Sequence record: PQ850628.1
Length of the DNA stretch: 64,000 nucleotides
Source of the DNA: Escherichia phage StefiGeyer_Bas88
Strand: one strand, 5' to 3'
Part shown: positions 1 to 64,000 of the stretch, piece after piece
Layout of the letters: each line of letters starts with the position of its first letter
Numbering within the stretch: the first letter of the stretch is position 1
Notes under the pieces: generated by a model
What the model saw: the letters and a program-made list of their open reading frames with translations, nothing else
Told to the model about the DNA's origin: nothing
The model's database searches: none
Translations under genes and position numbers: made by a program

Positions 1-1025
1 AGGGAAGATATAACACTTTACACATCGACGCATCTCGTTCCAATGCTATATATGGTGCATCAGCTGATGAAATCATGGGTCGTAACTTTGTTGGTGTTTG
101 GACTATCCGTGCTCATGGTGGATTCACTGCTGCTAATACTTCTTGGTCTGTTATTAACAGTGATGCCTCAGAACCTCCTAGTGGTACACCGATTACTGGT
201 GGTTTGGTTTCTTCTAAATACCTAGTGGGTGGTGTAGATAAGTACCGTTCTTCCCTTCAACTACAAGGTGCTAACGAAGTCGATCTATCTACAAGACTTA
301 CAACAATAAACGATAGGTATGCAATTGGGGCAGCTACTTGGGATTTTAAACTGGATGGTAAACTACTTTTTAATAAATCACTTACCCCCAATGGGATAGG
401 CTATTCTCCAGGGAATACATACCTAACCCTAGCTAATACATGGATGACCTCTCCTTACAGTGGATATGTTGGTTTCGTTGGTGGTGGTGTTGGGGTTTCT
501 GCTGGCGGTTGGAGAAACTTTATTTCTTTAGGGTCTTTGATTTTCCCTGATACAAGTCATCCTACTGCTGTTATTTCTCAGGTTTATGATTATGACCTTT
601 CTACAGGAAACCAACCTAATGGAGATATTGTCAGAAATACCTATTTCATTGCTGAGAGCTATGATATCACTTTTGGAAACAACAGTGGGACTACCAATTA
701 CATCTTCAGTAAGTCTCCAGTCTCTGACGAACGGCTAAAACATAGCATTAAGGAAGAAGGGACAGCCACAGCTCTTTCTAACTTAAATAAGATGGAGTAT
801 AAAACCTTTATCTATAATTATGATGAGAAAGCAACTACAAGGCGTGGATTTATTGCCCAGCAACTTGAAGCTATTGACCCTCAATATGTTAGGAAGTATA
901 AAACCTTCAAAGGTACTGATACCCTAGCTTTAGATGAGAATGTGTTGCTTTTAGATGCAATTGCTGCTATTCAAGAGCTTACCAAAAAGGTTGAGGCTTT
1001 AGAAGCAAAATTGGCAGAGAAGTAA
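1..1025 (+). CDS. tail fibre/tailspike, C-terminal part (5'-truncated at window edge) with self-cleaving intramolecular chaperone domain
   Basis: Reading frame is open from the window start. C-terminus has SDERLKHSIKE...GFIAQQLEAIDPQYV followed by a coiled coil, the signature of peptidase-S74-type chaperone domains of tail fibres and endosialidases. Confidence 0.6.
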   Translation, partial: GRYNTLHIDASRSNAIYGASADEIMGRNFVGVWTIRAHGGFTAANTSWSVINSDASEPPSGTPITGGLVSSKYLVGGVDKYRSSLQLQGANEVDLSTRLTTINDRYAIGAATWDFKLDGKLLFNKSLTPNGIGYSPGNTYLTLANTWMTSPYSGYVGFVGGGVGVSAGGWRNFISLGSLIFPDTSHPTAVISQVYDYDLSTGNQPNGDIVRNTYFIAESYDITFGNNSGTTNYIFSKSPVSDERLKHSIKEEGTATALSNLNKMEYKTFIYNYDEKATTRRGFIAQQLEAIDPQYVRKYKTFKGTDTLALDENVLLLDAIAAIQELTKKVEALEAKLAEK

Positions 1026-1028
1026 TAT

Positions 1029-1049
1029 AAGCCCCTTCGGGGGCTTTAG
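1029..1049 (+). terminator. stem-loop after tail fibre gene
   Basis: AAGCCCC-TTCG-GGGGCTT hairpin right after the stop codon; weak T-run. Confidence 0.35.
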
Positions 1050-1117
1050 TAGTAAGTCTGTTCAAGAAGTAATGAAACTACTATATCACAAAAGGAATAC
1101 ACATAGGAGATACGAAG

Positions 1118-1336
1118 ATGAAAATGATGAAACAAATCAGTTATGGGTTAGCTTGTGTTGCTACCGGTTTTGCTGTGTCAGTGGCTGTTCCTGTTAACGC
1201 TGTGCATCCTCTGGTAACACAACCTGCACCAGTTGAGAAATTGAGTGCATCATGCAAGCAGCGTACAATTCAAAATAATCTTGTGGTTATTTGTCCGGAC
1301 TCTGATTCTAGTGCTCTGAGAAATATGCTTCAGTAA
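1118..1336 (+). CDS. small exported/membrane-anchored protein next to endolysin (lysis accessory candidate)
   Basis: RBS AGGAGA upstream of ATG; N-terminal hydrophobic segment (LACVATGFAVSVAVPVNA); position immediately upstream of lysozyme. Confidence 0.35.
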   Translation: MKMMKQISYGLACVATGFAVSVAVPVNAVHPLVTQPAPVEKLSASCKQRTIQNNLVVICPDSDSSALRNMLQ

Positions 1337-1366
1337 TTTAGGGCTGACTAGAAAGGGAGGTGAAAA

Positions 1367-1858
1367 ATGGATAATGTCGCATTGCCACCGATACAACTGA
1401 GCTTAAGCCCAGAAGGGATGGAATTCATCATGAAGCATGAAGGTATGAGAACTCGTGCTTACCAAGATTCCGCAGGTATCTGGACGATATGTGTTGGGGC
1501 TACGCGCGATATGAATGGGTATCCAGTTAGACAGGGATTAACGTATTCTATAGAGGATTGTCTAGCTCTGCTAGATAGAGACACACAAGACTCTGTTCGT
1601 GCTACTCAGAAAAATATAAGGGTTCCTTTGTTTACTAATGAGTTTGATGCTTTAACCTCTTTCAACTTTAATGTTGGCGGTACAGCTCTCGCTACTTCTA
1701 AACTAAGGAAAGTGATCAACGGAGATGTTAGAGGTGATGTTTACTCTGAGTTTTTGCGTTGGGATAAAATAACAGTCAGAGGTGTAAAACAACAGAGTCC
1801 GGGACTTCACAACCGAAGGGTTGCAGAAGCAGACCTATACACCACAGGTAAATACTAA
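1367..1858 (+). CDS. endolysin, T4/P22-type lysozyme (GH24 fold)
   Basis: HEGMRTRAYQDSAGIWTICVGAT and VPLFTNEFDALTSFNFNVG match the catalytic Glu/Asp/Thr region of phage lysozymes; strong RBS GGGAGG. Confidence 0.85.
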   Translation: MDNVALPPIQLSLSPEGMEFIMKHEGMRTRAYQDSAGIWTICVGATRDMNGYPVRQGLTYSIEDCLALLDRDTQDSVRATQKNIRVPLFTNEFDALTSFNFNVGGTALATSKLRKVINGDVRGDVYSEFLRWDKITVRGVKQQSPGLHNRRVAEADLYTTGKY

Positions 1859-1870
1859 TGGAGGTGCCTT

Positions 1871-2674
1871 TTGGCTATTGAAACTACAGCGGTAGTCACT
1901 ACCGATTTAAACCCCCTGTACCCTCGTGACAGGGATTATATTTATGAAGGGGCGGCTCAACTCCGCCTTATCAAACAAGTCTTGATTAACACATTCCCTA
2001 ACATCACTGAACCAGTGAACCTTTCTTCTGAATCCTTTAAGGCTTTGTCAGAGAAAATCACCTTTACTGGCGATGCTATGGATGTTGGTAATCTGATGAT
2101 TAAAAACCTGACTCCGGGCACTGGTGATAAAGATGCTGTAACCAAAGGTCAGATGGAAGCTTTCATGTTGAATTGGATGCAGAACAAACTGTATCGTATT
2201 GGTGCTTACTACATCACTGAAGAAGATATCAACCCCGGTGATTCTAGTTCTCTCGGTTTTGGCTCTTGGGCTAAAGTTACTGGTGTTGTTATGGGTACTG
2301 GTGTTGTCAACCCCGATGGGTCTGTTCCTAACGCCCAACGTGTTGAGTTCCAAGCAGGCGGTACAGGTGGTCGTGTGTTTAATACAGTTCGTACTGAGAA
2401 TATGCCTCTAACTACAATCAATGGTTCTAGTTTCCAAGTTAGCTCCTACTCTCACGCACACAACATTACGATGGGCCGAGGGGATGCTAGTGGTCATAAC
2501 AGCAGCCCTAACTGGTATAGTCCGGGTGGTGGTTATACTCAAGTAACTGACACAAACACTCACTCACACTCAATCTCAGGTTCTGTTAGTTTTGGTTATG
2601 ATGATATTTCTCGTCAACCTATCAACACATTACCGCCATTCCGAGCAGCACATATTTGGAGACGTATTAGCTAA
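1871..2674 (+). CDS. tail fibre-like structural protein (TTG start)
   Basis: GGAGG RBS 6 nt before TTG; Gly/Ser/Thr-rich beta-type sequence in the tail-fibre gene block. Confidence 0.35.
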   Translation: MAIETTAVVTTDLNPLYPRDRDYIYEGAAQLRLIKQVLINTFPNITEPVNLSSESFKALSEKITFTGDAMDVGNLMIKNLTPGTGDKDAVTKGQMEAFMLNWMQNKLYRIGAYYITEEDINPGDSSSLGFGSWAKVTGVVMGTGVVNPDGSVPNAQRVEFQAGGTGGRVFNTVRTENMPLTTINGSSFQVSSYSHAHNITMGRGDASGHNSSPNWYSPGGGYTQVTDTNTHSHSISGSVSFGYDDISRQPINTLPPFRAAHIWRRIS

Positions 2675-2683
2675 GGAGGTAGC

Positions 2684-5600
2684 ATGGCTCTCTATCCAAT
2701 TAAATCACTAGGCGCAGTTGGGGTTATCGCTGACCAAGCACCTACTGACTTAGCACCAAATGCTTTTACTAACGCTATTAATGCTCGGTTTGTTGAGCAG
2801 AGAGTCTTTAAGACGGGGGGCAATGCCCCTCTTTCTTATGTAGACGAAGATAAAGATCTGACTCCTCTCTCATTCCTTTCAATGCCTTTCGACTATTATA
2901 GCGCAGGTAATAGCTTTCTTGTGGTAGGTACAGATAAGAAACTGTATAAACTTACCGACGAGAGTTTAACTGATATCAGCCGTAAGGTTGCTACAGCGAC
3001 AAAGAAAGCATCAGCGACAATTAAGATTTATCCAGTAGTCTCAAATATTGTTCCTAAAGAGACTTCTGTATCTATGAATTTTAACCAGACCAAGATTCTC
3101 GAAGTTGAAGTCACCCCTACAGATGCTCAAAATGCTAATCTAGTTTGGGAAGTAAGCAACTCTTCTTATGGTAGTATTGAAGTTGACCCTACTGACTCCA
3201 AGAAGGCTACCCTAACTTCTAAGTCTGTTGAAGGTAATTTAGTTGTGACAGTGAGCACATCTGATGAATCTATCTCAGCTCAGATTGCAGTTAATATCAT
3301 TGATGGTGATTCAGGTATCTATTTGAGCCAAGACACTTTGACTATGCGTAAAGGTGGTACATCAACCCTTACAGCAATTACAGGCAAACCATCTGTAACT
3401 TGGTCTTCCTCTAACCCATCCTTAGTTTCTGTTTCTCCTAATGCTAATACAAAGACAGTTGTTCTTACAGCTCTTGGAGAAGGACAGGTAACTATAACTG
3501 CTGATAATGGAACAAAGACTGCATCTTGTACAGTAACAGCAATACCTCAAATTGATAGCATCACATTAAGTCAGACAGACATTCAAATGAGTCGTGGTAC
3601 TCAGTACATCTTAACTGCAACAGTTAGTCCAGCTAACGCACCCAACCAAACAATCACTTGGACTTCTTCTAATACCAACATTGCTACAGTAAGTGGTACA
3701 GGTACAGAAGCTACAATAACTGGATTGCTTGCGGGGTATACAGAGATTACAGCAGTTACAGCGGAAGGAGGTCGTTCAGCAGTTTGTACTGTACGTGTTG
3801 ATTTATCTTCTCGTCTGGCAAGTAGGGCTATGTCAGCAATGACTATCACTACAGAAGATCCTGTAGAAGAACCAGTGGTTGGCTCAGAAGAAGTTACTTA
3901 TTTTGACGCTGATACAATTGGCATTGATACAACAGGGATGGCGGAAGGAAACAACTTCTACGACTACTCTAACGTCATGGACTTGGAAGGTTTTGGTAGA
4001 GCAGCAATGCTTGCTAATGATCCACCTTTGACTGGAGTTACTCTTGATGTTATTGATGCCTCTCTTGATGTAGGTGAAGAGATTGTTATCACAGCTACAG
4101 CATCTCCTACTGGAAGCTATACTTACAAGTGGACAGTTGATAAGAGTGGTTATGTTTCTACTACTTCTACAACTGACTCAACTTTGAAACTTACTGCTAT
4201 TCGTAAGGGTGAGGTTAAAGTGACTTGTACTGTAAGCCAGATGGTTCAGAAAGACTATGATGCGTTTGAAGATTATCCTTGGTATCATGCGATCATCTCT
4301 AACTGTGCAGTAGCAACTACTCACTACGAAACTCCTCAGGTTAAGGAATTCGATTCTGAATACTTCACTGATCTTCCGGGATGGGGCGAGCAGACGGTTG
4401 TTGATGCAGATGGTAATCCTTCTGTTAAGAAGTATAACTGGAAATGTGAACGAGTGAGAGCTTTTAACAATAGATTGTTTGCTCTGAATATGAGAGAGTC
4501 TAATGCCTCTGGTGTTACTACTCACTACCCTCTTCGTTTGCGTTGGTCTAACTTTGCAGAGGAAAACAAAGCCCCTCAGCTTTGGGATGATTATGCATAT
4601 GACCGAGCAGTGAGTTCTGACCTAGCAGCTAACATCGTAGGACAGACAGAAGCTCTTGAGAACGGTTATGCAGGATATATTGATTTGGCTGACTCTAATG
4701 GTAGTTTGTTAGATGTTCTTCCTCTGAAAGATTATCTGTTCGTTTACACTGAGTTTGAAACTTATATCGGCTCTCCTACCAACAACACCTATCAGCCTTT
4801 GATGTTTAAAAAGCTGTTTAACGATTCAGGGATACTTGCTCCTGAGTGTGTGGTGGAAGTTGAAGGTGGTCACTTTGTGGTAACTCAGAACGACGTCATT
4901 CTACACAATGGTGCTTCTAAGAAATCTATTGCTTCTAACCGAGTGAAGAATATGATCATTAATGAGATTTGTCTGGTGAACCCAATTGCTACACGAGTTC
5001 ATCTTCATCAGGATAAGAAAGAAGTATGGGTTCTTTATGTAGGTCCGGGTGAGCCTAAGGAAAGTTTTGCCTGTACTAAAGCAGCAGTATGGAATTATGA
5101 GTTCGATACTTGGTCTTTCCGTACGATTCCTTACTCTTACTGTATTGGTCTGGTTGATCCTCCGGTTCTGGAACGTGGTCCTATCTGGGCTGATTTCCAA
5201 GAGATCACTTGGGATGACCCTTCGATTGACAAACTAGTGTGGAGAAAAGATGCAACTAACTTCCGTCAGCGAGTTACAATCATAGGTTCTTTCTTGAAAG
5301 GATTTTACCAAGTTGATATAGGAGCTTTGGATTATATCTATGACAGAACAAATGATGTGGTTATAGAGAAGCCTCTGGAAATGAGACTAGAGAGAACGGG
5401 GATTGATTTTGATAACGTCACTAATGAATGGAATCAGAAACACATTAACCGATTTAGACCTCAAGTAACAGGAACAGGGACTTATACTTTTGAAGCAGGT
5501 GGTAGTCAATTCTCTAATGAGTATGGACACAACCACTCTACTAAAGAGTTTAGGGTTGGTGTAGATCGTCACGTAGCAGTCAGACTGAACCATCCATACC

Positions 5601-56619: not shown

Positions 56620-57522
56620 TTATGCAGCTTGTTGGCGTGCTGCCATGATTGCGGCAGCTTTGCGCAATACTTCTTCCTCATCTGCCGCCGCCTTCTCGTT
56701 CGCTTTGACAGTTGAAGCATTTGAGATACGACCGCGAAGGTTAGACAATTTTTCAGTCATTTCGTTGATCGCTTTCTCCATTTCATCAGCGTATGAATCC
56801 AGAGATTCAAGCTCTTTGGCTGAGGCATTGATCAGATAGTCATCGCTGATAGATACAGTTGATGCGGTTACTTTCTTAAGGAGTGAATCAAAAGTTTTCT
56901 TAACTTTGCCTACCTCTTCACTCAATGCGATAGTGTTATCAGAAGATGCACCGTTGCGCTCATCAGCCAGTAAGGCCGCTTCAATACGGATTGCAGCCAA
57001 ACGATCAGTTAAGGCGTAAATATCCTGGCTGAAGTTTTCGCCAACTTTCTGGTTGATTTGGTTGGCAACTGGCACGTTGTCGTTGCAGCCTTTATAGAAA
57101 GCTGGATTATCGACCTGTACATCTTCACCTTTAGCAAAGCGTTCGAAGGAGTTAGACCAGCGGGCACGGTTTTGCTCCATTTTGGTTTTAACCTGTTCCG
57201 GTTTAGCATCTTCTTTCGCTTTCGCTTCACCTTCCAGATTAATCCATTTCTTTTTACCGTTCGCCCCGTCGCTGTTGTACTTGATAGGAGTGAGGAAAGA
57301 GATTGCAACCGCAATCACATCTAAATCACGGTAACGCTCAGTCAGTAAGAAATCTACCGCCCCCTGCAATACATCCAGCTTCTTACCGTTAGCACGGAAG
57401 TGCTGCAAATGACCTAACAGGAAGTTAGAAACATCTTGCTTAATCGCTGCGTTGTTGCTACGGATATTGTTAGCCAGTGCGTTAAAGCCAGATTCGTTAA
57501 CCAGATTGAAAGATTTAGCCAT
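56620..57522 (-). CDS. first gene of the leftward early block, function unknown
   Basis: 300-aa helical protein downstream of the tandem sigma70-like promoters. Confidence 0.4.
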   Translation of the reverse strand: MAKSFNLVNESGFNALANNIRSNNAAIKQDVSNFLLGHLQHFRANGKKLDVLQGAVDFLLTERYRDLDVIAVAISFLTPIKYNSDGANGKKKWINLEGEAKAKEDAKPEQVKTKMEQNRARWSNSFERFAKGEDVQVDNPAFYKGCNDNVPVANQINQKVGENFSQDIYALTDRLAAIRIEAALLADERNGASSDNTIALSEEVGKVKKTFDSLLKKVTASTVSISDDYLINASAKELESLDSYADEMEKAINEMTEKLSNLRGRISNASTVKANEKAAADEEEVLRKAAAIMAARQQAA

Positions 57523-58435
57523 GATAATTTACCTTTTAATTAAAACGCTCTATGCGCCGCTCTCTATGAGCTATTCAAGTCACAATGACTTAACACTAAT
57601 CACTAACTATTAGTAACCAGTGGTAAATCAGGCGGACTTATCAGGAGTTAACCTTGCCGCCTAACTTGCCGTGATGTTTCATCTGGTATCTTTAATTAGT
57701 CGCTATAAACTAAGCCGACCTGATAGCGATGATCAATCATCACAATAAGGCAGTGTGCCCGACTCTAATTAGTTACTTTATTGTAACCGTCGGTAATATC
57801 GTTTACTTTGCTTTCGCTCCCGCCTATCCTTTTATACCAACTCTCAATCGCTAACCATCGCCCACTACGGGAGGTTATTGCGAAAGAGTCATTAGCCGCC
57901 TGATACATTGACGTTTTATATCTTTCAGCAGGTTTACTACATAAACTGATTATGTACGCCATCAATAGTGGCCTCAAATCATTCACTTCGTAAACGTTCA
58001 CACTAAACCTTATTGTTAAATAGCAATTTGCCACTTTTTAACCACTCCCCGCCGCTCTCAATTGAGCGTTAATTAGTCGGACTTGTCTACCCTGATTAAC
58101 TTCTTTCACCGTAGCGCCTTGTTAGCGATGACCGCCGCTACCCTTAACCGTGGGCGATTAGCTTAAGTCTTTGCGTGCACTCGATGAATCCGCTTATCAG
58201 TGGTGACGTTTCCAGTAAGGGATTGTAAAACTGTTTACCCTGATAATTTAGGGAGTTTTACGCCGTTTTATCTGGTATACTTTCCGATGGTTATTATCAT
58301 CAAGTATATTTAACCGATATAGGAGAATGTTTAAATTGTTAAAGAGCGGTAAATCTATCAACGTGCTTTCTCACGTTATGCAACTGTTAGCCGTTGTTAC
58401 GCTGTTCACTTAGCGGTGACTTGCTTAGTGAGTGC

Positions 58436-58468
58436 TCATTATGAATCATCTCGTTTAGCGTGTCAACC
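58436..58468 (-). promoter_or_regulatory. sigma70-like promoter P1
   Basis: - strand reads A-tract, TTGACA, 17-nt spacer, CATAAT. Confidence 0.5.
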
Positions 58469-58604
58469 ACTTTTTTAAATCTTTTTCTCGTCTATTCTTT
58501 CGAATGACCAGTTAATCACGTATTGGATTAACAAGATTGTAAGCGGTTGCGCTTAACTTTCTGATTCATATTTTTAAAGAGCGGTGTTTCTTACTGCTTA
58601 GTGA

Positions 58605-58637
58605 ACATTCTATCAGAGTGTTTCACCTTGTCAACTC
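58605..58637 (-). promoter_or_regulatory. sigma70-like promoter P2
   Basis: - strand reads A-tract, TTGACA, 16-17-nt spacer, TAGAAT. Confidence 0.45.
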
Positions 58638-58836
58638 TTTTTATCATCTTCTTTTATTCTATTCCCTTATCTCGCTTGAATCTTTGCGAAAGGGCAAGAT
58701 GATAAATTGTTAAAGAGCGTTAAGTCTATCGCCGTCTTCCTCGGCGTCATGCCTTGAGTGTTCCCACTCCTTCCAGTTTAAGCCTTTTTACATGATGCTA
58801 ATCATCTATCTGGAAGTGTTCTGTACTGCTGAGATC

Positions 58837-58868
58837 ACATCTTATCATAATGATTCGACGTGTCAACA
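58837..58868 (-). promoter_or_regulatory. sigma70-like promoter P3
   Basis: - strand reads A-tract, TTGACA, then a weaker -10 (TAAGAT). Confidence 0.35.
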
Positions 58869-58926
58869 ATCTTTTTCGATTAATGTATCTTGATAAACTA
58901 GCGACCAGTAAGGCCGCTAACCTATC

Positions 58927-59127
58927 CTAGTTCATACGTTTAAAGGTTAAATCTTTATCTGTACTTACCAGCGATAGCACCGCAATAGATTTGCCTTTAT
59001 CGGCATCTTCTATCATCTCCTTAGCTTGCTGTAGCGTACTACCGACTATTCTCATAATCATGTTAGTAACGTTAATGCTAGTGCAAGTGATTTGTGTGTC
59101 TTTGCTTGAGAAGGTATAGATGTTCAT
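58927..59127 (-). CDS. small early protein
   Basis: GAGGA RBS before ATG at 59127; TTGATA/CATAAT promoter-like pair about 59140..59166 upstream. Confidence 0.35.
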   Translation of the reverse strand: MNIYTFSSKDTQITCTSINVTNMIMRIVGSTLQQAKEMIEDADKGKSIAVLSLVSTDKDLTFKRMN

Positions 59128-59627
59128 TGATAAATCCTCATTATGGCATGGTTGGGAGTTTATCAAGATACACTAATCGAGTTTTTAAAGAGCTAGTAAA
59201 CAAAGTTTGCCTTGAGAGAATCTAGTACACTGTTAAACGCTGATTTCTTTGAAGTATCGACCTTATAGGCCGCTAAATCCACGCATGGAAGAAGAATCGA
59301 CTAGGATAATCAACTAAGTGCCTTATAGTAATGACGCTTGTTAGCACCACTCCTAAGCAAACCTTGTTTTTAAAGAGCAAGGCTAAAAGTCTAGCCTATC
59401 AGGCTTGCTACCGACTGCATAACTAAACCTGAGATTCAAATATAAATCTATCAAGCAAAGAAAGCAATACCTTTTTCTAAAATAATTTCACTTTCTTTTA
59501 GGTATAGATGAGCACGCGCACGAATAACATCAAGGGAGGAAGAAAACAAGCATTATAATCAAAAGCTAGGCATGTAGGAGGCGTTCTAACGAGATAAACA
59601 GGGGCAAGATGTGCAATCACCTTAGAA

Positions 59628-59655
59628 ATGAAAAAAGCGCCTCAAAAGGGCGCTT
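59628..59655 (-). terminator. rho-independent terminator (- strand)
   Basis: AGCGCCC-UUUUGAG-GGCGCU followed by UUUUUU. Confidence 0.5.
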
Positions 59656-59674
59656 AGAGAGTCTTACGGGTTGG

Positions 59675-60001
59675 TTACGGATTGGTGCAAGTGCCGTTAC
59701 CTGATGCTATTTCGTTCATCGACTCATCGAACAACGTCATGCTAGACCGCATCATGTGATCAATAGTAATTTGCTTGCCTGTAGTTTCATTGACTAGCAT
59801 TGCATGCTTGCCATCAACGACACGATGATCATAATCATTCAGGTCAATCAATACTACCTTGCTAGACTTTTTGCCAGTGTCGTAATTGTCCATTAGATAG
59901 GTGCATTGCAGACCATCAAGGCTAGCCTCATTGAATACGGCAGCATGTGACACGGAAGAAACAGCGAACAAGGCAGCACATACAGCTAATTTAATTTTCA
60001 T
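59675..60001 (-). CDS. secreted (periplasmic) protein
   Basis: Signal peptide MKIKLAVCAALFAVSSVSHA. Confidence 0.45.
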   Translation of the reverse strand: MKIKLAVCAALFAVSSVSHAAVFNEASLDGLQCTYLMDNYDTGKKSSKVVLIDLNDYDHRVVDGKHAMLVNETTGKQITIDHMMRSSMTLFDESMNEIASGNGTCTNP

Positions 60002-60106
60002 AATCCAACCCTTACAAGGAACGTGCAACATAAGAAATCATGTCATAGGTAAATAACATGATACAGAAAGCAATCAGGCAATGCAAGAAATATTTATGAA
60101 TCACCA

Positions 60107-60355
60107 TTAACGATCCTCGACGGTTAACAGTTCTTCCAGTGATAGACCGGATTTAACCAGCAAATCACGATATTCGTTAGCATCCATCGGATCAAGGCCG
60201 GACAACCGGGCAATAGTCATGCGTGCATGTGCTGAAGACAAGGAAGCCAAAGCACGGATAGGAATCAGTACAAGCCCATATTTACCGCTGATAACCAAAT
60301 CACCATGCTGGATGCACATATGGGAGTTTATTACGGTTGCAAATGATTCGTTCAC
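60107..60355 (-). CDS. hypothetical small protein
   Basis: 82-aa ORF; start overlaps upstream stop. Confidence 0.3.
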   Translation of the reverse strand: MNESFATVINSHMCIQHGDLVISGKYGLVLIPIRALASLSSAHARMTIARLSGLDPMDANEYRDLLVKSGLSLEELLTVEDR

Positions 60356-61221
60356 TGGATAGCCTCACAATTAGCAAAGTTAATAAAGGTTGTATAAACT
60401 GCTACACCGTCATTGTAAGCAGTGGTAGCGAGTACAGTTTCACTCACATCGCCATAGCTAACGAGATTAGTTACAAACTGTAATTTCTCTTTCTCAATCT
60501 TCTGATATAGAGAATAAGTAACCATGTCATGATCACTATCAGCACGATTTAAATTAATAACCGACTGAATGCCTGATTTCTCACCTAACGGGGTAAGAGT
60601 GACACGCACATCTTTTACGGTTACAGAGTTAAAATGCACCTTCCAGAATGAATCATTACCATCACTGCCAACGTCACGGCAGACCATATCAGGAGCATTC
60701 TTAAACGTGCTAACAAAAGATTGCAGACCAGTAGAAAGAGAGTCTTTTGCCTGAACATTGGTAGCGATAGCACTAACACCGATAGCTGCAACCAGTGCAT
60801 AACTTGCAAGGTTGACAGACTTCATAATCTTACTTGCAATAGAAGGCTTGCTATCTTTCTTCTTCTTGTTCTGAATAGCTTCAACCATAGCAGACAAGCG
60901 GGATAATACTGCGTTAACATCGCGGCAAGATTCAGGCCAATCATTCTGAGTCCAACTATCTAAATTAGCCTGAATGTAACAGTTGATAGCATCTTGCATA
61001 TCTGTAAAACCATTCTCTTTCATTGACTGCTCATCTTCACACTGTAAGGCGTTCGCAGCGGAATCTATGATAAGACAAGCCAGAATGACAGAGTTTTTAA
61101 AGCTGGTACGAGCTTGCTGATTATTCATCCATTGAGAAGGCACACCAACGGAAAGACCTAACGGAGAAAGTACATCATTTGCTTGATTCAAGTATTTAAT
61201 TGCTAACTTTGACATTTTCAT
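60352..61221 (-). CDS. membrane-associated protein with central TM helix
   Basis: 289 aa; central hydrophobic helix SVNLASYALVAAIGVSAIATNV. Confidence 0.4.
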   Translation of the reverse strand: MKMSKLAIKYLNQANDVLSPLGLSVGVPSQWMNNQQARTSFKNSVILACLIIDSAANALQCEDEQSMKENGFTDMQDAINCYIQANLDSWTQNDWPESCRDVNAVLSRLSAMVEAIQNKKKKDSKPSIASKIMKSVNLASYALVAAIGVSAIATNVQAKDSLSTGLQSFVSTFKNAPDMVCRDVGSDGNDSFWKVHFNSVTVKDVRVTLTPLGEKSGIQSVINLNRADSDHDMVTYSLYQKIEKEKLQFVTNLVSYGDVSETVLATTAYNDGVAVYTTFINFANCEAIQ

Positions 61222-61399
61222 TAATCCTTTCGGTTGATGTGAACTACAAACTACAATCGCAACTATATATTAAAGGAAAAACTTGTCAACCACTTATTTT
61301 CAAACTATTTCATAACTCACTGAATTTAAAAGGAATTTAATTTACTAAACTTTCTTACTCAGAGGTACAGCTTACTGACAGAATGTTACTTTATAACAC

Positions 61400-61510
61400 T
61401 AATAGAACGGGTAGCAGACCAACGGGATAGATAGATGGGTAAGACGTGCCGCATAGGTTAGCCAATGGGTAAGAAGCCTAACGAGGAAGGGGAAACGGGT
61501 AGGGTATAAT
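61400..61510. repeat. iteron-like array I, (A/C)(A/T)GGGTAG
   Basis: ACGGGTAG, GATGGGTAAG, AATGGGTAAG, ACGGGTAGGG within about 100 bp. Confidence 0.55.
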
Positions 61511-61559
61511 GTAAGTTAGTTACAGATGACAGACCAGACCATGCGGGAGTTAATTACCA

Positions 61560-61850
61560 GTCAAATAATTTACTCAAACAACTAAAAGAAAAAGAATAAA
61601 GACACGCTGAAAAAGAAACAGACCTAAAAGATAAAGATTAACATAATCATTAAAAGAAACTATTAACCAGTCTAATGATACATACATCAATAATCCACTC
61701 ATGAAACATTAACATAAGTTATCACTATTAAACTTGGGGGATTGTGTGAATGCTTATAGTTGCATGGTGTTACTAGTAGTTATCATAGGTTATCATTAGC
61801 CTGATCATAGTCACTATTATAGCCCCTTAACAGAGTCTAGCCTTTCATCC
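61560..61850. repeat. A-tract-rich region with TTATCA boxes
   Basis: AAAAGAAAAAG...AAAAAGAAACAG...AAAAGATAAAG runs, then GTTATCACTATT, AGTTATCATAGG, GGTTATCATTAG. Confidence 0.35.
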
Positions 61851-61869
61851 CTTCTCAATATGAGTAAGA

Positions 61870-61980
61870 GAAATACGGGTGGGAAATCACTGGTTAGATA
61901 TACATGGGTAGATAATCAATGTCTAATATTAATGGGTAGTGTATTTATGGGTAGGCATGCCACTGATAGCAGGTAGGGCA
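61870..61980. repeat. iteron-like array II
   Basis: ACGGGTGGG, CATGGGTAGA, AATGGGTAGT, TATGGGTAGG, AGGTAGGG. Confidence 0.55.
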
Positions 61981-62178
61981 AGGCTTAGAGCTTAAAGGCG
62001 ATGTGATTCTGTACAGGCGATTGCATCGGTAATAACCCTTTTTTAAATGAGGACTCCCCCTTTTACCAAAACGCGCTCGGAGGGGCTAGGTCCACTCGGT
62101 CAAATCAGAATTTTAAACCCTTATATATAACTATATGCCCCAACGTTAGTTGTGGATTTAAGAGTGAGGAACAACTTT

Positions 62179-62343
62179 ATGTGGAAGATTAAGTTACTAG
62201 TTAAGCAATTCAAATGTAGTCATGAGTATTATCCAATCCGGATATCAAGAGGTGATGAACGATTACACGCTTATTACAAGAGTACATGGAGATGTGCAGA
62301 CTGTGGTAAGGTGAGGAATAGTAAATGGGTGGATAGGCCTTAA
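62179..62343 (+). CDS. small Cys/His-containing protein
   Basis: GAGGA RBS before ATG at 62179; CSHE ... CADCGK motif. Confidence 0.35.
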   Translation: MWKIKLLVKQFKCSHEYYPIRISRGDERLHAYYKSTWRCADCGKVRNSKWVDRP

Positions 62344-62460
62344 TGGGTTTGTATGGGGTGGCCTTAATGTGACATGGCCTTTATGGAGTCCCCCTTACAT
62401 CAGCGTACATGGGTTCATACATGGGTGGGCCTTTAGATGAATACGCCTTTATGGGTTAGC
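62320..62460. repeat. iteron-like array III, GGCCTT(T)A(A)TGGG units
   Basis: At least seven (A/T)ATGGGT(G/T/A) copies spaced 10-30 bp, several preceded by GGCCTT. Confidence 0.55.
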
Positions 62461-62488
62461 CACTCTCGTTTATCAGAGGAGATATAAA

Positions 62489-62755
62489 ATGATTCTAGAC
62501 TTTTTATCAGAGTTACTTCCTTTCTTCCGCACTGAGACATGTGCATTCAAAGTTGAAGAAGATGGGGACTTTGAAGTAATAACTTGTTTGGGTAGATTAG
62601 TAGACCTAGATGACGATGAAGATTTTGATGCTACGATGGACATTAGTTCATTGGGCTGGTTGTACATGAGATGCTTTGTGAGTTACAAGGCTGAGACGTT
62701 TAAAGATTATCGTTATAGTGATAACGTAAATACTGAAGGAGAGAATGATGAATAA
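62489..62755 (+). CDS. small acidic protein
   Basis: GAGGAG RBS; Asp/Glu-rich 88 aa. Confidence 0.4.
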   Translation: MILDFLSELLPFFRTETCAFKVEEDGDFEVITCLGRLVDLDDDEDFDATMDISSLGWLYMRCFVSYKAETFKDYRYSDNVNTEGENDE

Positions 62756-63401
62756 TATGACAGGAACTACTACACTGAATGCAATCTATGAGAACATGGG
62801 ATGTAAAGGCGAGGTTGTTTACAATGGTAATCTCCGTCCTTTATCAGAGGACATTCTCTATCTGAATCGTGTTCATGAAACTACTGGAGGTAAATCCCAA
62901 GTTGAGATGGTAAAACAACTGGCTCATGGTTCTGTGTATGGTTATGCTCCTTCAACCCGTGAATTGTGGGAAGGTTTGATTCCTAGTACAGAAGCGAAAG
63001 ATGTGAAAGATTATTTCACTGTAGCAAAAGAAGTTAAACGCAAGTGTCCATCCAATCTAGAAGTTGTTCCGTATGTAGCTGACAAACATGCACACCTACC
63101 GGATTATGCCCGTGAGATGATTGAGATGATAGAAGAAGCCGAGTATGAAGCTCTGAATAATTATTTAAATTCAAAAGATCAATGGTCACGTAATGTAGTA
63201 ATTGATGAAGAAGGTAATGAAGTAGTTACGTGGGTACATGCTAGTGAACAAGCTCTGGACCCCGAGCTTGAAGAATACAAAAAATTTTTGGCGTCCTCTT
63301 CTTTTGATGTAGAGAATGACAAATCTGTTCCAGTGACTTGGGAAGGTGAAACTGTAGCTCTCCAGACTTTGTTCAACCTGCACGTAGGTAATGTAGATTA
63401 A
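62745..63401 (+). CDS. hypothetical protein
   Basis: 218-aa ORF with RBS; followed by a terminator. Confidence 0.4.
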   Translation: MMNNMTGTTTLNAIYENMGCKGEVVYNGNLRPLSEDILYLNRVHETTGGKSQVEMVKQLAHGSVYGYAPSTRELWEGLIPSTEAKDVKDYFTVAKEVKRKCPSNLEVVPYVADKHAHLPDYAREMIEMIEEAEYEALNNYLNSKDQWSRNVVIDEEGNEVVTWVHASEQALDPELEEYKKFLASSSFDVENDKSVPVTWEGETVALQTLFNLHVGNVD

Positions 63402-63410
63402 TAAAAGGTG

Positions 63411-63438
63411 TTGCCTCCTCTAGTGGGAGGCTTTTTGT
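63411..63438 (+). terminator. rho-independent terminator (+ strand)
   Basis: GCCTCC-TCTAGTG-GGAGGC followed by TTTTTGTT. Confidence 0.5.
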
Positions 63439-63466
63439 TATAACGATAATGTAGAAGGAGTATAAG

Positions 63467-63934
63467 ATGTTTGGAGAAAAAGGAGAACTCACGCCTGCAC
63501 AGGTAGCTGAGGTTACAGGAAGATTACCCGGTGTAACTGATGAATTGGAAAACCGTGGTATGGAGCCAAGCACAGGGAAGTTCCAAAAGGGAAATAAGTT
63601 CGGACGACCCAAAGGTAGTAGAGGTAAGTTGACACAGCTCATGTTGGACCGAGTTGCTGCAAGTCATCTGTCCCCTGATGAAGTGTTGATTCAAATTTAT
63701 GAAGATCCAAATATTCCACCTGATCTTAGATTCAAGGCTGCAAGTAAAGTTGCAGATCTGGTATATCCGAAGGCAGCTTCTGTTGAGATTAAGATTGAGG
63801 AAGAGAATGTAATTAATGAAGATTCACTGAACGCACAAATCAAGGACTTCTTGGCTGGAGCATTAGGTGCAGATGTGCTACCTCCAGAGGACTCTGAGGA
63901 CGCTGAAAAGGAGGAGGAAGCGGACGAGAGTTAA
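63467..63934 (+). CDS. possible small terminase subunit-like protein (GRPKG motif), acidic C-terminus
   Basis: KFQKGNKFGRPKGSRGK resembles a basic motif I recall in small packaging proteins; AAGGAG RBS. Confidence 0.3.
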   Translation: MFGEKGELTPAQVAEVTGRLPGVTDELENRGMEPSTGKFQKGNKFGRPKGSRGKLTQLMLDRVAASHLSPDEVLIQIYEDPNIPPDLRFKAASKVADLVYPKAASVEIKIEEENVINEDSLNAQIKDFLAGALGADVLPPEDSEDAEKEEEADES

Positions 63935-64000
63935 TAGGAATAAAGGGGAGGGTTCTTTTCGCGAGGGATCTCTCCCTTTTCTATTTTAATTGGAGGAAAC

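Follow-up and report, generated by a model that had tools for sequence, protein, structure and literature searches.

The 64,000-nucleotide (nt) sequence of Escherichia phage StefiGeyer_Bas88 (PQ850628.1) is the window analyzed here, and all coordinates below are positions within it. Close to one end of the genome lies a compact minus-strand gene cluster, which the original prediction described as a three-gene unit encoding an exported protein and a membrane protein. The three open reading frames (ORFs) on which that description was built, at 60352..61221, 60107..60355, and 59675..60001, are all present and encode 289, 82, and 108 amino acids (aa), respectively; they are called genes A, B, and C below. 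The count of three has to be revised, as a fourth cistron probably lies between genes B and C. The features of the unit, in the direction of transcription, are as follows.

61262..61289, minus strand: sigma-70-type promoter found by promoter scan (TTGACA, 16 nt, TATAGT; 11 of 12 consensus positions)
60352..61221, minus strand: gene A, 289 aa from 61221 or 287 aa from 61215; homologue of phi32_128 and SU10_0125
60859..61215, minus strand: gene A N-terminal helical domain (residues ~3-121), predicted cytoplasmic; AlphaFold helices 5-121, match to phrog_15368
60751..60819, minus strand: gene A putative signal-anchor or internal signal peptide (residues ~135-157), from hydropathy and a lysine-rich N-terminal flank
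60355..60747, minus strand: gene A C-terminal domain (residues 159-289), short helix plus eight-stranded up-and-down beta-barrel, predicted periplasmic
60107..60355, minus strand: gene B, 82 aa; GTG start overlapping the gene A stop (GTGA), with a GAGG Shine-Dalgarno 8 nt upstream
60012..60107, minus strand: probable fourth cistron, 31-aa peptide MVIHKYFLHCLIAFCIMLFTYDMISYVARSL, between genes B and C; ATG overlapping the gene B stop (TAATG)
59675..60001, minus strand: gene C, 108 aa; homologue of phi32_125
59942..60001, minus strand: gene C signal peptide, residues 1-20, from its sequence pattern
59678..59941, minus strand: gene C mature beta-barrel, 87 aa, from the AlphaFold model
59628..59655, minus strand: intrinsic-terminator-like hairpin and T-run (AAGCGCC-CTTTTGA-GGCGCTT), 20 nt past the gene C stop

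The 5.3 kb around the unit matches 98 phage records, all of them from phiEco32-like Escherichia and Shigella podophages (Gordonclarkvirinae). The closest records to the window are those of TH34, TH42, TH43, EK010, E20-1, and SU7, and by sequence similarity the window is therefore a Suseptimavirus-like member of this group. Gene A matches phrog_36409 (E value, 1.5e-97) and gene C matches phrog_13168 (E value, 1.6e-42), both over their full lengths, with the gene order and neighbors of the phiEco32 gp128 and gp125 families. Pairwise ratios of nonsynonymous to synonymous substitution (dN/dS) for genes A, B, and C are 0.06 to 0.17 (gene A, 0.06 to 0.17; gene B, 0.06 to 0.10), with a single low-divergence outlier of 0.27 for gene C. 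Together with the homologues in relatives, these ratios indicate that the three genes are real rather than chance ORFs and are under purifying selection. Scans of all four products against PHROGs, Pfam, NCBIfam, and PADLOC returned nothing informative on function, and an Rfam search of 57000-64000 found no RNA family.

Gene C begins with the tripartite pattern of a cleavable signal peptide, as had been predicted: an n-region, MKIK, a 13-residue h-region, LAVCAALFAVSSV, and the residues S-H-A, after which the mature protein would start with AVF. The charged n-region, an h-region within the 7- to 15-residue range, and small residues at positions -3 and -1 are those of a Sec-type signal peptide. 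In line with this, the AlphaFold model is disordered over residues 1-19 and ordered from residue 21, with a predicted local distance difference test score of about 95. Compared with the Kuravirus forms of gene C, which carry a longer hydrophobic leader (33 residues) ending in S-V-K-A and followed by ATF, the leader found in the window is a short classical signal peptide. The ordered part of the model consists of a short helix followed by seven strands of 4 to 10 residues each. In an alignment of 18 family members the mature part is highly conserved; C33 and C105, which lie in the first and last strands, are invariant, and the most conserved residues occupy the turns and strands 6 and 7. The family itself is narrow. 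A word-indexed search found 27 close relatives, and tblastn located gene C in 86 phage records, all in the phiEco32-like group. An exhaustive hidden Markov model search of 1.84 billion representative proteins recovered only the two family clusters of gene C and two spurious repeat proteins, and a sequence search of the PDB gave no match.

Gene A was predicted to contain a central transmembrane helix, and the segment at residues ~135-157 bears this out: it has the highest hydropathy of the protein (Kyte-Doolittle 19-residue mean, 1.71), is preceded by the lysine-rich stretch NKKKKDSKP, and is followed by VQA-KD, which offers a possible signal-peptidase site after V-Q-A158. A helix is predicted at 129-153 with low confidence. 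Beyond this segment, the AlphaFold model contains a helix and eight strands spanning residues 165 to 281. Cys285 of this C-terminal domain is invariant and Cys181 nearly so; in both genes A and C, the invariant or near-invariant cysteine pair is confined to the exported part. In many relatives, among them SU7 (gp100), Bas86, PAS59, and P0091, the C-terminal domain stands alone as a protein of 162 to 166 aa whose N terminus is exactly the hydrophobic segment, which makes it an ordinary secreted pre-protein. Inspection of the sequence before the internal Met133 found no Shine-Dalgarno, so that in StefiGeyer_Bas88 the barrel appears to be made as a fusion. The models of gene C and of the gene A C-terminal domain, whose barrels are predicted with high or moderate confidence, match the same structural neighbors, and on these models we describe the two as previously undescribed periplasmic mini-barrels, each probably closed by a disulfide.

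The N-terminal domain of gene A is more widespread. Homologues with 37 to 55% identity occur in Klebsiella Webervirus, Phapecoctavirus, Avunavirus, and other phages of Enterobacter, Pantoea, Pectobacterium, Erwinia, and Acinetobacter; all are annotated as "hypothetical". The ~120-aa domain (MSKSAIK...LACLIINSAANALQ...) is present in Phapecoctavirus REC, Klebsiella phage Border_ER3, and Avunavirus 19-1-2. It occurs alone or fused to other C termini, as in P0113 (215 aa), where the C terminus is unrelated, and it is missing from SU7 and Bas86. No family match to it was found, and a profile search of the PDB was empty. Judged from this distribution, the N-terminal domain is a mobile module common to very different virulent enterobacterial phages, and gene A is by its domain composition a mosaic in which this widespread, predicted cytoplasmic module is joined through a signal-anchor to an exported barrel specific to the lineage. 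The 142 homologues of gene A all come from phiEco32-like contigs or are relatives of the N-terminal domain. All gene A homologues begin with MSK; an ATG corresponding to 61221 is missing from TH34, TH43, and MLP3, and the Shine-Dalgarno sequence GAAAGGA lies 3 nt from the 61221 start versus 9 nt from 61215. The start is therefore probably at 61215 (MSKLAIK...).

The 31-aa ORF at 60012..60107 has a GAGGA Shine-Dalgarno 7 nt upstream and encodes an entirely hydrophobic peptide. TH34, TH43, EK010, SU7, and MLP3 all keep the frame open and conserved; except in TH34, it there follows an extra 90-aa gene and not gene B. Substitutions within it exchange one hydrophobic residue for another, and none of the three differences from TH34 changes an amino acid. 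In phiEco32, a counterpart of 29 aa that shares the pattern YF..CL....LF..DM lies between genes 126 and 125 (~3840..3930, minus strand), unannotated in NC_010324; indeed, the ORF is annotated in no record inspected. Bas86 (PQ850622) carries one extra T in a T-run at ~3761..3850 that shifts the frame, which reflects either true inactivation or an error in sequencing the homopolymer. The pattern of conservation points to a probable fourth cistron, and the composition of its product suggests that it is probably a single-pass membrane micro-protein.

Gene B has neither a signal peptide nor a transmembrane or hydrophobic segment, and its homologues are all close ones (8 clusters, 16 phage records, all Suseptimavirus-like). 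Scans of Pfam, NCBIfam, PADLOC, and PHROGs gave no family match. Alignment to a phiEco32 ORF that lies unannotated between genes 127 and 126 gave 32% identity and an hhalign probability of 69%, and gene B has a C-terminal G.D..D...R......GLSL..LL pattern in common with phi32_127 that is not significant (P value, 0.003). That gene B, phi32_126, and phi32_127 are paralogues is only suggested by these resemblances. The phiEco32 record NC_010324 lacks an annotation for the distant gene B relative, an ORF of ~73 aa at ~4215..4385 (minus strand).

The AT-rich region noted upstream of gene A is present (27% G+C in 61222..61350 versus 42% for the window) and holds the promoter at 61289..61262. Eight phages, phiEco32 among them, share the -35/-10 block of this promoter almost without change; SU7 and Bas86 still have it despite different sequence downstream of it, and the SU7 record annotates a promoter at the corresponding place. 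At the unit's opposite end, the hairpin has a 7-base-pair (bp) stem with five G-C pairs (59655..59635), is the best scan match in the surrounding 7-kb region, is identical in seven Suseptimavirus-like relatives, and is annotated as a terminator in SU7. It had been called a strong terminator; the hairpin and its conservation are confirmed, while its folding energy is modest (free energy, -12.5 kcal/mol; z score, -1.4). Between these signals, the overlaps of the cistrons and the Shine-Dalgarno sites (GAAAGGA for gene A, GAGG for the GTG of gene B, and AAGGG for gene C) support translational coupling. The SU10 paper likewise reports "one promoter upstream of CDS125" and a "putative terminator downstream of CDS121", like phiEco32, and places the orthologous unit in the early class (PMC4281155). 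According to the 7-11 paper, the early genes of phiEco32 are transcribed leftward, most have no known function, and sigma-70-dependent transcription is later turned off by gp79 (PMC8948821). By analogy with these reports, the sequence elements described here would constitute an independent transcription unit with its own sigma-70 promoter and intrinsic terminator, expressed early as had been proposed. For the phage sigma factor, the gp36-type motif TAATGTATA showed no enrichment in the window; within the unit there is a single match, with one mismatch, which overlaps the -10 box.

The unit had been placed between the early promoters and the iteron arrays. Early-type promoters do lie nearby, on its downstream side: the three best sigma-70-like promoters of the region are in the 57.5- to 59.6-kb spacer, with -35 boxes at 58866, 58634, and 58466 (minus strand), and a comparable arrangement of three early promoters is described in the SU10 paper (PMC4281155). 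These spacer promoters (58438..58866, minus strand) pair TTGACA with TAAGAT, TAGAAT, and CATAAT, and 33-nt and 18-nt repeats surround them (58332..58735); judged from their positions, some or all of the repeats taken for "iteron" arrays may be promoter modules in several copies, matching the three SU10 early promoters. The same "non-coding" spacer contains an ORF of ~66 aa from an internal ATG (58927..59127, minus strand), which by position may correspond to a 66-aa coding sequence (CDS) at a similar place in SU7 and MLP3. Upstream of the unit there are ~600 bp of non-coding DNA and then a terminal repeat. Phage NC-B has an annotated terminal repeat of 194 bp, whose counterpart in the window is a single copy (~193 bp, 89% identity) at 61895..62087; the final 50 bp of phiEco32 fall at 62038..62087, and the records of linear relatives end inside the window. 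The single repeat copy and the internal record ends indicate that the window is a circularly joined assembly in which the repeat has collapsed; this mapping puts the genome's right physical end near 62087. The unit is thus the gene cluster nearest that end (~800 bp away) and is transcribed leftward.

To compare presence and absence in relatives, which the original prediction had named as a check, we used as a base the ~97 records that contain a conserved neighbor (a gp124-like gene). The gene A barrel is present in 93 of them and gene C in 86; a phi32_126-like gene is found in 78, a phi32_127-like gene in 77, and gene B in 16. What stays constant in the cassette is thus the pair of exported barrels, while the small cytoplasmic genes between them vary. 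In phage LAMP (MG673519, 68.5 kb), the promoter-side and terminator-side flanks that match phiEco32 are both present in 1..2631, with only a 127-like gene between them; genes A, B, 126, and C are gone. This natural reduction shows that the cassette is accessory and, on at least one host, not needed for lytic growth. The outcome that the original prediction had set against its proposal, a core replication or structural role in relatives, does not apply to these genes, and the SU10 proteomics in the parts available lists no product of CDS121-125 (PMC4281155). The literature covered on phiEco32-like phages, which did not extend to the original phiEco32 papers, gives no account of the function, export, or structure of the unit proteins, and the BASEL paper and the NC101 prophage paper make no mention of the unit genes.

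Taken together, the cassette is very probably early, non-essential, and directed at the envelope. Host sigma-70 RNA polymerase would start at the near-consensus promoter, transcribe four coupled cistrons, and stop at the hairpin; with its own promoter and terminator, the unit would be separate from the main early operon, which has three promoters further in. Gene A would insert into the inner membrane with its N terminus inside and its C terminus outside by means of the internal signal-anchor, keeping the N-terminal domain on the cytoplasmic side and displaying the barrel in the periplasm, or releasing it there if signal peptidase cleaves. Gene C would be exported by Sec, cleaved after Ala20, and folded into a second small barrel in which a DsbA-made Cys33-Cys105 disulfide joins the first and last strands. 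The pairing of an exported with a membrane protein on which the original prediction relied is thus upheld at the level of predicted export and topology. The 31-aa peptide would sit in the membrane and gene B in the cytoplasm. In the periplasm, the barrels could bind an envelope component that incoming phages need, such as an entry channel, the peptidoglycan-cutting tail enzyme, or a terminal receptor, so that an already infected cell would exclude secondary infections. Superinfection exclusion as the specific role, proposed by analogy, is the candidate that we favor, tentatively and with odds clearly below even. Doubtful, and a step further, is the proposal that the two new mini-barrel families and the 31-aa peptide form a new envelope-level exclusion or entry-blocking system in virulent podophages, which the fused gene A links across the inner membrane to the widespread N-terminal domain. 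For the explanation as a whole, an early envelope-directed cassette serving exclusion, we estimate a probability of about 0.5, a compromise between the high figure for the cassette and the low one for the exclusion role.

Several points weigh against this explanation. Exclusion genes are usually patchy in distribution, and these genes are kept in ~90% of relatives, including reduced genomes of 67 to 69 kb. Sequence and fold searches gave no relationship to any known exclusion protein. Signal peptides and topology were judged by eye and from hydropathy, and relatives are the source for early timing and terminator efficiency. The exclusion step itself is argued from analogy.

Part of the same evidence can be read as counter-defense, in which the barrels and the membrane peptide neutralize an envelope-associated host or prophage barrier (an abortive-infection or exclusion system, or a periplasmic sensor) and the N-terminal domain is an independent anti-defense module. 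The cassette would be the first to be expressed and is the nearest to the genome end, its content is variable, and the spread of the N-terminal domain over very different virulent enterobacterial phages is what a mobile host-takeover or anti-defense module would be expected to show. Gordonclarkvirinae are, moreover, reported to be highly resistant to tested defense systems (PMC11990801); however, that resistance concerns restriction-modification and other systems and is not linked to these genes. Known anti-defense proteins are mostly cytoplasmic, and there were no meaningful matches to defense or anti-defense families, so that we consider this reading rather unlikely. A second possibility is that the barrels are ligand-binding calycins that adjust the envelope by binding a small hydrophobic or envelope-derived molecule (a lipid, a lipopolysaccharide or peptidoglycan precursor, or a cofactor) or, as a sub-case, that they inhibit a periplasmic enzyme in the manner of MliC/PliC. 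Their structural neighbors are lipocalins, nitrobindin, avidins, lipid-binding proteins, the Cap15 nucleotide-binding barrel, and PliC, and both proteins are predicted to be small, periplasmic, and disulfide stabilized. However, no lipocalin or MliC Pfam match appeared at E values up to 1, and sequence membership of gene C in the MliC family was rejected on this basis for all 18 family members. An 87-aa barrel is very small for a cavity, and the conserved turns and strands 6 and 7 suit a protein-binding surface at least equally well; ligand binding is accordingly an improbable account of the cassette.

A third possibility is control of lysis timing, with periplasmic proteins that sense superinfection or the state of the envelope and signal to the holin like the T4 antiholin RI, the peptide and gene A providing the transmembrane link. 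The architecture would suit it, as a periplasmic domain is tethered to a cytoplasmic one by a single transmembrane segment beside a tiny membrane peptide, and T4 RI is also a small early exported protein (PMC8385771). Yet no similarity to RI was found, the unit is not adjacent to lysis genes, expression from sigma-70 alone would cease early, and SU7-type phages lack the N-terminal domain, which indicates that a transmembrane relay is not needed; we regard this role as quite improbable. A surface-changing role for the barrels as small proteins inserted in the outer membrane, like those of the OmpX/Ail/Lom type, is very unlikely indeed: strands of 4 to 10 residues and a mature gene C product of 87 aa are too short to span a membrane, the C termini (...CTNP and ...CEAIQ) lack the typical terminal aromatic residue, no Pfam match was found, and the conserved, presumably disulfide-bonded cysteines and polar strand faces fit soluble barrels. 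Least credible of all is that the database labels are right and gene C is a terminase component of a packaging or replication unit. The "terminase" label is carried by phrog_13168 and several GenBank and RefSeq records; nevertheless, searches of Pfam and NCBIfam gave no terminase match, and no other Pfam domain was found. The product consists of a signal peptide and an all-beta barrel, its gene lies in an early leftward unit and is absent from LAMP, and in MLP3 the annotation places a DNA packaging protein at the opposite end of the genome. We therefore treat the label as a misannotation.

The surroundings of the genome termini yielded further observations. The motif ATGGGTRR occurs 20 times in the window versus 6.5 matches expected by chance, and 7 of the 20 cluster at 61435..62428, all on the plus strand, in a stretch that runs from the non-coding right end through the terminal repeat into the beginning of the left end; sequences close to the motif, ACGGGTAG among them, are found at 61408, 61496, and 61876. 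From its position, this cluster may represent candidate sites near the termini of the genome at which a packaging or regulatory protein binds. A 63-aa ORF located just within the left end (62152..62343, plus strand) has a C-x-H ... C-x-x-C pattern (KCSHE...RCADCGK) that suggests a small zinc-binding protein, and Bas86 annotates a CDS of equal size near this position. A 218-aa left-end protein (62745..63401, plus strand) is labeled "ABC transporter" (phrog_12176) and has no Pfam match, and phi32_127 (87 aa, NC_010324 4393..4656), which was scanned against PHROGs only, is labeled "polymerase" (phrog_14176). Both labels look doubtful and propagated.

The unit is an already described transcription unit of a known phage group, whose proteins have no assigned function in the literature searched. 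What is new here is the description of the mini-barrels, the mosaic structure of gene A, the micro-protein gene, the natural deletion in LAMP, and the finding that neither the "terminase" nor the Spackle label holds. Common coliphages with a broad host range, the Gordonclarkvirinae are under consideration for therapy, and their early genes are almost wholly unannotated. The analysis turns four hypothetical or mislabeled genes into a defined envelope-directed cassette and corrects a propagated label. If the barrels do block secondary infection, this would matter for phage cocktails, where related phages could exclude each other, and a new protein family would join the few exclusion factors known from virulent phages. 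Should they fail to do so, the gain is a better annotation of an accessory operon.

The closest known system is the right-end early unit of Kuravirus, genes 128-125 of phiEco32 and CDS125-121 of SU10, which is orthologous and syntenic to the unit in the window. The nearly invariant promoter, the terminator after the unit, and the place beside the right terminal repeat are the same, and genes A and C are 57% and 66% identical to phi32_128 and phi32_125, respectively. Unlike phiEco32, the window has no homologues of phi32_127 and phi32_126 and has gene B instead, a layout in common with TH34; EK010, SU7, and MLP3 retain a 126-like gene. At the level of fold, the best structural neighbors of gene C and the gene A C-terminal domain are calycin-like minimal barrels (designed eight-stranded barrels, the Cap15 barrel, Gid4, nitrobindin, and lipocalins), which the models resemble in having a short N-terminal helix followed by an eight-stranded up-and-down barrel. 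The nearest viral structures outside the family, found with Foldseek in BFVD, are small uncharacterized proteins of large coliphages, A0A097EXN9 of 121Q, A0A142IIM1 of SEGD1, and A0A7L8G650 (E values, 2e-5 to 2e-2; 16 to 23% identity; TM-scores, 0.4 to 0.6), which are too distant for a call of homology. MliC/PliC lysozyme inhibitors are likewise small disulfide-stabilized periplasmic beta-barrels of eight strands, as predicted here for genes A and C.

Among phage exclusion factors, the receptor-blocking lipoproteins of the T5 Llp and Cor type are also small phage-encoded envelope proteins that could act on an entry route. Membership in this class was rejected since the lipobox [LVI][ASTVI][GAS]C is absent: the L-A-V-C8 of gene C has Val at -1, lies 7 residues from the start, and is not conserved in the Kuravirus forms, and in gene A no Cys lies close to the hydrophobic segment. 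T4 Spackle (PF25676), whose role is to bind and inhibit the tail lysozyme domain of an incoming phage and to exclude superinfection, was considered for gene C as well. The score of 14.6 bits falls below the gathering cutoff of 27; a Spackle match was found in only 3 of 18 family members (best E value, 0.034), all three with the signal peptide type seen in the window, and a profile of the mature domain retrieved no Spackle chain from the PDB at E values up to 10. T4 Spackle has a helical fold, while the gene C model is all beta. The subthreshold score, the restriction of matches to members with that leader, the negative profile search, and the all-beta model together led us to reject the assignment. 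As a likeness in working only, between unrelated proteins, T4 Imm and Spackle nevertheless offer a parallel to the role proposed here: they, too, are early genes of a virulent coliphage that pair a membrane protein (Imm) with a small Sec-exported periplasmic protein (Spackle) carrying a cysteine pair.

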